Under the pieces are notes generated by a model, which saw nothing but the letters and a program-made list of their open reading frames with translations, was not told the origin of the DNA and did not search any database. A stretch of DNA of 639 bases from the NCBI RefSeq assembly GCF_003334385.1, contig NZ_QOWN01000156.1, one strand, 5' to 3'. A program made the position numbers and the translations under genes. Origin of the DNA: Escherichia coli (GTDB lineage Bacteria; Pseudomonadota; Gammaproteobacteria; Enterobacterales; Enterobacteriaceae). Each line of letters starts with the position of its first letter. Position 1 is the first letter of the stretch. Below are positions 1-639 of the stretch, piece after piece.

Positions 1-150
1 GATTATCAGCCAGGATTCGTCAAAGTCCGGGATATAACGGCGGTTCTCCGGCAGGAAAAACTCCCTCGCCAGTATCACACTGTGTTCCTTCAGTAACGCC
101 TGCAGACCATACTCCAGATAGCGATTCCTGGTAGCCAGAATCACCTTCAT
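1..150 (-). CDS. Hypothetical protein, N-terminal 50 codons only. 3'-partial; the gene continues beyond the window's left edge.
   Basis: ATG at 150..148 (minus), preceded by an AGGAAGG Shine-Dalgarno at 7-nt spacing. The frame is open for all 50 codons to position 1: MKVILATRNRYLEYGLQALLKEHSVILAREFFLPENRRYIPDFDESWLII... It is absent from the ORF track, presumably because it has no in-window stop. I do not recognise the family from this fragment. Confidence 0.45.
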   Translation of the reverse strand, partial: MKVILATRNRYLEYGLQALLKEHSVILAREFFLPENRRYIPDFDESWLII

Positions 151-157
151 CGCAGCA

Positions 158-164
158 CCTTCCT
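158..164 (-). promoter_or_regulatory. Shine-Dalgarno / ribosome-binding site for the downstream minus-strand gene
   Basis: Minus-strand AGGAAGG (plus 158..164), then a 7-nt spacer (UGCUGCG), then ATG at 150..148. Confidence 0.5.
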
Positions 165-187
165 GTTTTTTATGCCCCATGAAAAAC
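165..187. repeat. AT-rich near-perfect inverted repeat (10-nt arms, CCC centre)
   Basis: Plus strand 165..174 gttttttatg and 178..187 catgaaaaac are reverse complements except for one T/G position. It lies between the terminator stem and the downstream gene's Shine-Dalgarno, and its right arm is the terminator T-tract. Confidence 0.4.
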
Positions 188-214
188 GGCAGACCAGAGT
201 CCTGCGCCTGCCGT
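181..214 (-). terminator. Putative Rho-independent terminator of the adhesin gene
   Basis: Minus-strand RNA reads CGGCAGGC-(11-nt loop GCAGGACUCUG)-GUCUGCCG followed by UUUUUC. This is an 8-bp GC-rich stem with one G.U wobble (plus-strand arms 187..194 and 206..213) and a T-tract at 186..181, about 25 nt downstream of the TAA stop. On the plus strand the same stem would have an A-C mismatch and no trailing U-tract, so it is directional for the minus strand. Confidence 0.55.
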
Positions 215-238
215 CATACTTCATGTCACCTTCAGCAA

Positions 239-639
239 TTAAAACTCGAAGTTCACACCAACATTCCAGGAGGCATCGCCATCACTGAATGCCACGCCTG
301 CTTTCGCTGCGGTCTGCTCGTTGAAGCGGTAACCCACACCCACTGCCAGTGCCTGCTGGTCGCTGTAACCACCAACCGCTGCCGTGGCGTTGAATTTACC
401 CACACTGTACGGCTGGAACAGACCTGTCAGGGCCGCAGACTGTGCTGCTGCTCGTTTCATTTCCTTATGGTTTTCATTAATCTGGCGCTGCTGGCTGTCC
501 AGACGTGCTGAATGTTGCTGCAGCGTACGGGTATTGGCTGCAATCGCCTTGCTGTTTTTCTCAATGGATTGCGTGTTACGGGTGACACGGCCATCAATGG
601 CACCAACTGCTGCATCAATACGGTCAGTACGACCAGACA
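239..639 (-). CDS. Trimeric autotransporter adhesin (YadA/Eib-like), C-terminal part: coiled-coil stalk plus beta-barrel membrane anchor. 5'-partial; the gene continues beyond the window's right edge.
   Basis: Minus-strand frame with first full codon at 637..635 is open from the window edge to TAA at 241..239. Translation: [132 protein letters not shown]. The last ~65 residues ([22 protein letters not shown]...WNVGVNFEF) have the Gly/Ala-rich alternating pattern and terminal aromatic (Phe) typical of the YadA-type anchor. The upstream ~60 residues show a strict heptad with hydrophobic a (I/V/L/M) and polar d (N/N/N/H/Q/N) positions. The ATG at 460..458 that starts the 73-aa track ORF is in this same frame and is an internal Met. 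Confidence 0.85.

Follow-up and report, generated by a model that had tools for sequence, protein, structure and literature searches.

An internal methionine codon behind a Shine-Dalgarno-like hexamer in the prophage-borne eibA-type adhesin gene of Escherichia coli

Does a short, anchor-only protein start inside the 3′ part of an adhesin gene, or is its apparent start codon an ordinary internal methionine? The question is raised by a 639-nt stretch of Escherichia coli DNA (contig NZ_QOWN01000156.1; the whole stretch is referred to here as the window), for which a program-made list gives a 73-aa open reading frame (ORF) on the minus strand (239..460). At its start the minus strand reads ...AAC CAT AAG GAA ATG AAA CGA..., with the ATG at 458..460 (-) directly adjoining a Shine-Dalgarno (SD)-like AAGGAA at 461..466 (-), as the initial annotation had described. 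The SD-to-ATG spacing of about 1 nt given there holds for the AAGGA core (1 nt), whereas the whole hexamer leaves a gap of 0 nt. The frame had also been said to stay open upstream to the window edge, and it is indeed open, with no stop, from 637 down to the TAA at 241..239 (132 residues). Between 637 and 460 the open frame contains no ATG, GTG or TTG. The listed ORF begins at 460 for that reason alone and is an artefact created by the window cut.

The extent of the gene beyond the window was read directly from E. coli SCU-104 (NZ_CP053284.1, 2187359-2187997), which is identical to the window in 639 of 639 bases and is the only identical one among all loci compared; the window is present at full length in 28 other complete genomes. 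In the SCU-104 locus (L001, in which each coordinate equals the window coordinate plus 8000), the ORF runs from 9399 to 8239 (-) and encodes 386 aa with the N-terminus MSKKLAKTVLSAAMAGVLFGVSFDIMAAEE, its ATG lying 760 nt past window position 639. The same ORF is annotated by RefSeq as WP_174147698.1, a "YadA C-terminal domain-containing protein". The real coding sequence is thus longer than the 73-aa ORF and the methionine is internal, as the initial annotation had proposed. It had also reasoned that an in-frame stop just past 639 would make a short ORF plausible; as the SCU-104 frame stays open for 781 nt past that position, up to a first in-frame TAA at L001 9420..9418, this ground for a short ORF falls away. 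No start-type codon is present between that TAA and the ATG at 9399. The ORF likewise extends upstream in all 27 phage or prophage relatives that were read. The upstream extent rests on one 100% identical record (SCU-104) together with near-identical ones, and copies with a broken upstream frame occur elsewhere. Homologs measured 357-423 aa in all of the at least 120 cases among the matches listed, and some of them are named "Immunoglobulin-binding protein from prophage P-EibA" (88% identity).

At 239..639 (-) the window thus carries the 3′ part of a gene for a trimeric autotransporter adhesin of the eibA type, as indicated by the open frame, the 386-aa ORF in SCU-104, the identity to EibA and the matches to EibD and YadA structures. 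Its eib codons at 637..242 (-) correspond to about residues 254-386 and are followed by the TAA at 241..239, while 639..638 are the final two bases of about codon 253. The methionine in question, residue 60 of the window frame, corresponds to Met314 of the complete protein, to Met320 of EibA and to Met439 of EibD, and the hexamer forms the codons of Lys312 and Glu313.

An upstream start and a signal peptide, which the initial annotation had suggested looking for beyond the window, were found at the ATG of L001 9399. The N-terminus, MSKKLAKTVLSAAMAGVLFGVSFDIMA|AEE, resembles a signal peptide, with a basic start, a hydrophobic core and an I-M-A site, and its Kyte-Doolittle maximum over 11 residues is 2.26. 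The same type of signal peptide is seen in most of the 27 related loci, and the 386-aa protein is predicted to carry an N-terminal Sec signal peptide. At the annotated eib start itself (L001 9399-9420, minus strand), an AGGG 10 nt upstream gives only weak pairing with the anti-SD sequence (-3.9 kcal/mol), and several pseudo-sites inside the gene pair more strongly.

At the other end of the protein, a YadA-like membrane anchor domain of the kind that closes trimeric autotransporter adhesins (type Vc secretion) was detected directly at 242..418 (-), residues 328-386, where Pfam PF03895 matched over its whole model (1-60 of 60, E = 3.5e-16). Such an anchor contributes four strands per chain. A PDB sequence search returned EibD (2xqh, 1.5e-31; 2xzr, 5.4e-27) and the YadA anchor (2lme, 1.3e-18), the last matching the same domain. 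The coiled-coil stalk runs into this anchor without a break, given eight unbroken heptads up to Met314 and the identity to the EibD stalk. By sequence the protein belongs to the Eib family, being 88.8% identical to EibA and, across the stalk and anchor that the window encodes, 100% identical to EibD, and its prophage location and orf-191 / eib / orf-156 / orf-60 arrangement place it there as well. Eib proteins have been reported as heat-stable trimers in the outer membrane, and as being produced in static cultures at stationary phase (PMC5450701). Judged by its sequence identity, the SCU-104 Eib would be expected to bind the Fc part of IgG or IgA non-immunely.

The stalk segment in the window (449..619, minus strand; window-frame residues I7-A63) shows why this methionine is kept. 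It is marked by its heptads, by Asn at d positions, by its identity to EibD and by 7-residue indels. Counting heptads with the methionine at a, the a series reads V11, V18, I25, I32, L39, L46, I53 and M60, and the d series I7, I14, N21, N28, N35, H42, Q49, N56 and A63. Aliphatic a residues combined with Asn at d are the pattern of trimeric autotransporter stalks. Eight consecutive I, L, V or M residues at 7-residue spacing, with the methionine as the last, were reached in none of 20,000 shuffles, which agrees with the earlier description of a register passing seamlessly through this a-position methionine. Our statements on the register are based on our own heptad count and on the alignment with 2xzr. 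The EibD constructs 2xqh and 2xzr are identical to the window stalk through ...QINENHKEM; in the 2xzr alignment MK comes next after HKE, after which there is no further match to Eib, and the non-Eib part of 2xzr is presumably a GCN4 adaptor with its own Met at a. The assignment of the methionine to an a position is supported by two independent observations, this end of the 2xzr match just after ...HKE-MK and the indels among the 29 aligned relatives, which are of exactly 7 residues. Met314 is a core a residue of the left-handed coiled coil and lies shortly ahead of the membrane anchor. The methionine is kept in 28 of the 29 aligned sequences and is replaced by Leu in the most distant one (L028), as can be explained by its place at a core a position.

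The hexamer behaves otherwise in the same alignment. The codon pair before the methionine is AAG GAA in 10 sequences, AAA GAG in 1 and GAA GAG or GAA GAA in 17, and the remaining one of the 29 has AAG GAG followed by TTA. The AAA GAG pair is a synonymous change without GG, and the GAA pairs encode Glu-Glu (a K-to-E change), again without GG. The nucleotide motif is therefore not conserved beyond what the coding needs, and synonymous-site constraint on AAGGAA was rejected, as the hexamer varies in relatives while the methionine is kept. Since it is lost while the methionine stays, it is a Lys-Glu codon pair and not a ribosome-binding site, in line with the "chance SD-like motif" of the initial annotation. 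Within the window AAGGAA occurs twice against 0.28 expected (7 of 200 shuffles also reach 2). Each copy is read in frame as Lys-Glu, the second lying at 90..85 in orf-156. The longer string AAGGAAATG occurs once in 16.6 kb, which 32 of 200 shuffles also reach. Pairing of AAGGAA with the anti-SD sequence at the 16S 3′ end was calculated at -6.2 kcal/mol with a 0-nt gap. The idea that it is an unusual motif within eib was dropped, as three other in-frame start-type codons (ATG, GTG or TTG) of the gene pair about equally (aa18, -6.8; aa36, -6.1; aa67, -7.9 kcal/mol).

There is thus very little doubt in our minds that the ATG at 460..458 codes for an ordinary methionine inside a known eib gene, an observation that was correct and is unremarkable. 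The explanation that we hold almost certain is that Met314 lies inside a trimeric autotransporter adhesin of the EibA type, encoded on a P-EibA-like prophage of E. coli. The protein starts about 940 nt upstream of the Met314 ATG with a predicted Sec-type signal peptide, and its passenger and coiled-coil stalk run unbroken into the C-terminal YadA-like anchor, with Met314 as the hydrophobic core residue of the last stalk heptad before the barrel. AAGGAA is a mere Lys-Glu codon pair whose anti-SD match is incidental and whose 0-1 nt gap is too close for the ribosome.

It could be argued instead that initiation at Met314 gives rise to a 73-residue protein that consists of the anchor, is distinct from the full adhesin and is functional in its own right, for instance by forming empty barrels or by modulating export. 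Such a product would hold the complete YadA_anchor domain, and the pairing of AAGGAA at -6.2 kcal/mol and the conservation of the methionine among relatives both speak for it. However, E. coli ribosomes use an SD-ATG spacing of roughly 5-9 nt, far above the 0-1 nt found here; the hexamer has not been retained across relatives (GAAGAG or GAAGAA stands in 17 of 29 and the synonymous AAAGAG in one, all without GG); and the core a position, occupied by Leu in L028, accounts for the conserved methionine. The N-terminus of the 73-aa product is weakly signal-like in outline, in that a mildly hydrophobic stretch comes after basic residues, but its hydropathy (11 residues) peaks at 1.1, whereas the real signal peptide reaches 2.26. 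Sec export of trimeric autotransporters depends on a signal peptide at the N-terminus (PMC12511318). As a product started at Met314 would have none, it would most likely stay in the cytoplasm. In the literature collection searched, no paper combines internal translation initiation with autotransporters. We infer that there is no meaningful initiation at Met314, and consider a functional anchor-only protein very improbable.

A further explanation would be that the gene of the window is itself a broken copy, damaged upstream by a nonsense mutation, a frameshift or a 5′ truncation, with the 73-aa ORF as its longest callable piece. Such copies do exist. The exact 73-aa protein has been deposited as "Adhesin yadA" (CAM3402879.1, CAM3416657.1 and GCW15049.1), the exact 73-aa gene has been called on at least 9 contigs, and in all six of the contigs read the upstream frame was either broken or without a start. 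In L034 a TAA replaces a Lys codon two codons before the ATG (TAA GAG ATG, 1433-1438) and splits the gene into 476 and 73 aa. L037 has a CAG to TAG change 19 codons upstream of the ATG (286-288), L035 a frameshift upstream of the ATG, and L036 unrelated upstream DNA with a stop 44 codons upstream, while L032 and L033 are remnants of eibD-like genes, truncated at the 5′ end and lacking any other start codon. The nonsense alleles in L034 and L037 may be either real mutations or assembly or sequencing errors. None of the contigs with a called 73-aa gene is identical to the window, though; the best, L037, differs at a single base, namely that of the nonsense mutation. No stop interrupts the frame within the window, and the sole 639/639 match among the compared loci, SCU-104, has an intact ORF. 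That the window holds a broken copy is thus also highly unlikely, if by a hair less so than a functional anchor-only protein.

The concern that gene callers could be misled by this ATG was well founded, as the 73-aa "Adhesin yadA" stands in public databases on broken or truncated copies. The problem is real for fragments and pseudogenes, not for the intact gene matching the window. For annotation this means that ORF finders report a 73-aa "YadA adhesin" wherever windows or contigs are cut within eib or eib copies are broken, and recognising such fragments prevents spurious anchor-only proteins from being counted; our knowledge of Eib proteins and trimeric autotransporters is unchanged by the finding. 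On sequence grounds one might imagine that the ATG after Lys-Glu serves as a restart codon in broken eib alleles, so that L034 would give a secreted anchorless passenger plus a 73-residue anchor peptide by termination-reinitiation, and that in intact alleles AAGGAA would pause ribosomes briefly before the anchor, but we regard this as little more than a long shot.

The relation of the SCU-104 protein to known systems was established by comparing its locus with AF151091 and AF151675. GenBank records AF151091, AF151674 and AF151675, which represent prophages P-EibA, P-EibC and P-EibD of E. coli ECOR-9, annotate the whole of the window as eib, stem_loop and orf-156. EibA (AAF63234.1, 392 aa; P-EibA of ECOR-9, AF151091) is 88.8% identical to the SCU-104 protein, with a nearly identical C-terminal part of about 190 residues, the same type of signal peptide (MSKKFTKAVLSAAMAGVLFGVSFDIMA) and the same internal stretch around the methionine, which likewise lies 73 residues from the end. 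The SCU-104 protein is six residues shorter, and its N-terminal passenger differs from that of EibA by small indels and by substitutions at scattered positions. The neighbours are also the same in both loci (orf-191, stem-loop, orf-156, orf-60 and eaaA), and the SCU-104 Eib is an EibA allele and not a separate protein. In case of EibD (AF151675; 2XQH and 2XZR), the 48-residue stalk segment encoded in the window is identical to the crystallised protein, and the anchor and ORF-156 are 98-100% identical to their SCU-104 counterparts, whereas EibD as a whole has 511 aa, a larger head region and only 45.8% overall identity to the SCU-104 protein. YadA of Yersinia (2LME, NF033478, PF03895) shares the C-terminal anchor domain after a coiled coil. 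On the other hand, its passenger is unrelated to that of the SCU-104 Eib, and its gene is on the virulence plasmid, whereas the SCU-104 eib is prophage-borne. The SCU-104 protein scored 70 bits against the NCBIfam model for YadA (NF033478; cutoff 750), and it is therefore not YadA itself.

Among the other loci, Eib paralogs in L003, L004, L005 and L027 (ORFs of 401-473 codons) have C-terminal 132 residues that are 100% identical to those of the window, while their passengers and signal peptides differ greatly. Such a shared 3′ module suggests, as far as sequences can tell, recombination or gene conversion, and it may be the cause of short-read assembly breaks within these genes. A short Eib-like ORF (about 190 codons) that is cut off by the end of the contig was observed in L026 (2719-3348); it starts with MSNTVVNPALKNQVGELSGR..., its N-terminus has no signal-peptide-like features, and it may be a deletion derivative.

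Downstream of eib, a stem-loop of 29 nt, ACGGCAG...CTGCCGT (214..186), followed by TTTTC, occupies 181..214 (-) and lies 24 nt past the eib stop (fold z = -2.7). AF151091 and AF151675 both carry a stem_loop annotation at this position, and the structure is probably the intrinsic terminator after eib. The first 50 codons of ORF-156 (156 aa in full) then follow at 1..150 (-), preceded by a good SD sequence, AGGAAGG at 164..158, which lies 7 nt before the ATG at 150 and pairs at -7.8 kcal/mol. ORF-156 of SCU-104 shares 97-99% identity with ORF-156A and ORF-156D, the gene being conserved downstream of eibA, eibC and eibD. It matched PHROG 6585, a function-unknown family, with E = 2.9e-99, and gave no match in Pfam or NCBIfam; it was first annotated more than 20 years ago. 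An impression, from reading, of a LuxR-type helix-turn-helix at the ORF-156 C-terminus was dropped, as no search supports it. The window thus consists of the 3′ end of an eibA allele, a probable terminator and the first part of orf-156, each of which has been described before and is already known from the GenBank records.

An antisense ORF of 110 aa is also present in the window at 179-511 (+), opposite the eib coiled-coil and anchor region. A 93-aa antisense "gene" has been called on the truncated contigs L032 (227-508) and L033 (355-636). The antisense ORF is probably spurious.

The synteny of the SCU-104 locus was seen directly. Tail-fibre and gpJ genes lie upstream of eib, and the order of tail-fibre genes, orf-191 (DUF4376), eib, stem-loop, orf-156, orf-60 and a gene for an EaaA-type S6 autotransporter peptidase matches that of P-EibA. 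ORF-60 (L001 7498-7680, minus strand; 60 aa) is 98% identical to ORF-60A of P-EibA and is unannotated in SCU-104, and a shorter version of 43 aa is annotated at its place in S1-CAM-02-A. The end of the P-EibA-like prophage, with a 1341-aa S6-family (EaaA-type) autotransporter peptidase, was identified at L001 2529-7406. It adjoins a truncated OmpW gene near yciE, yciF, yciG and trpA, which suggests that the prophage is integrated into or beside ompW in SCU-104.
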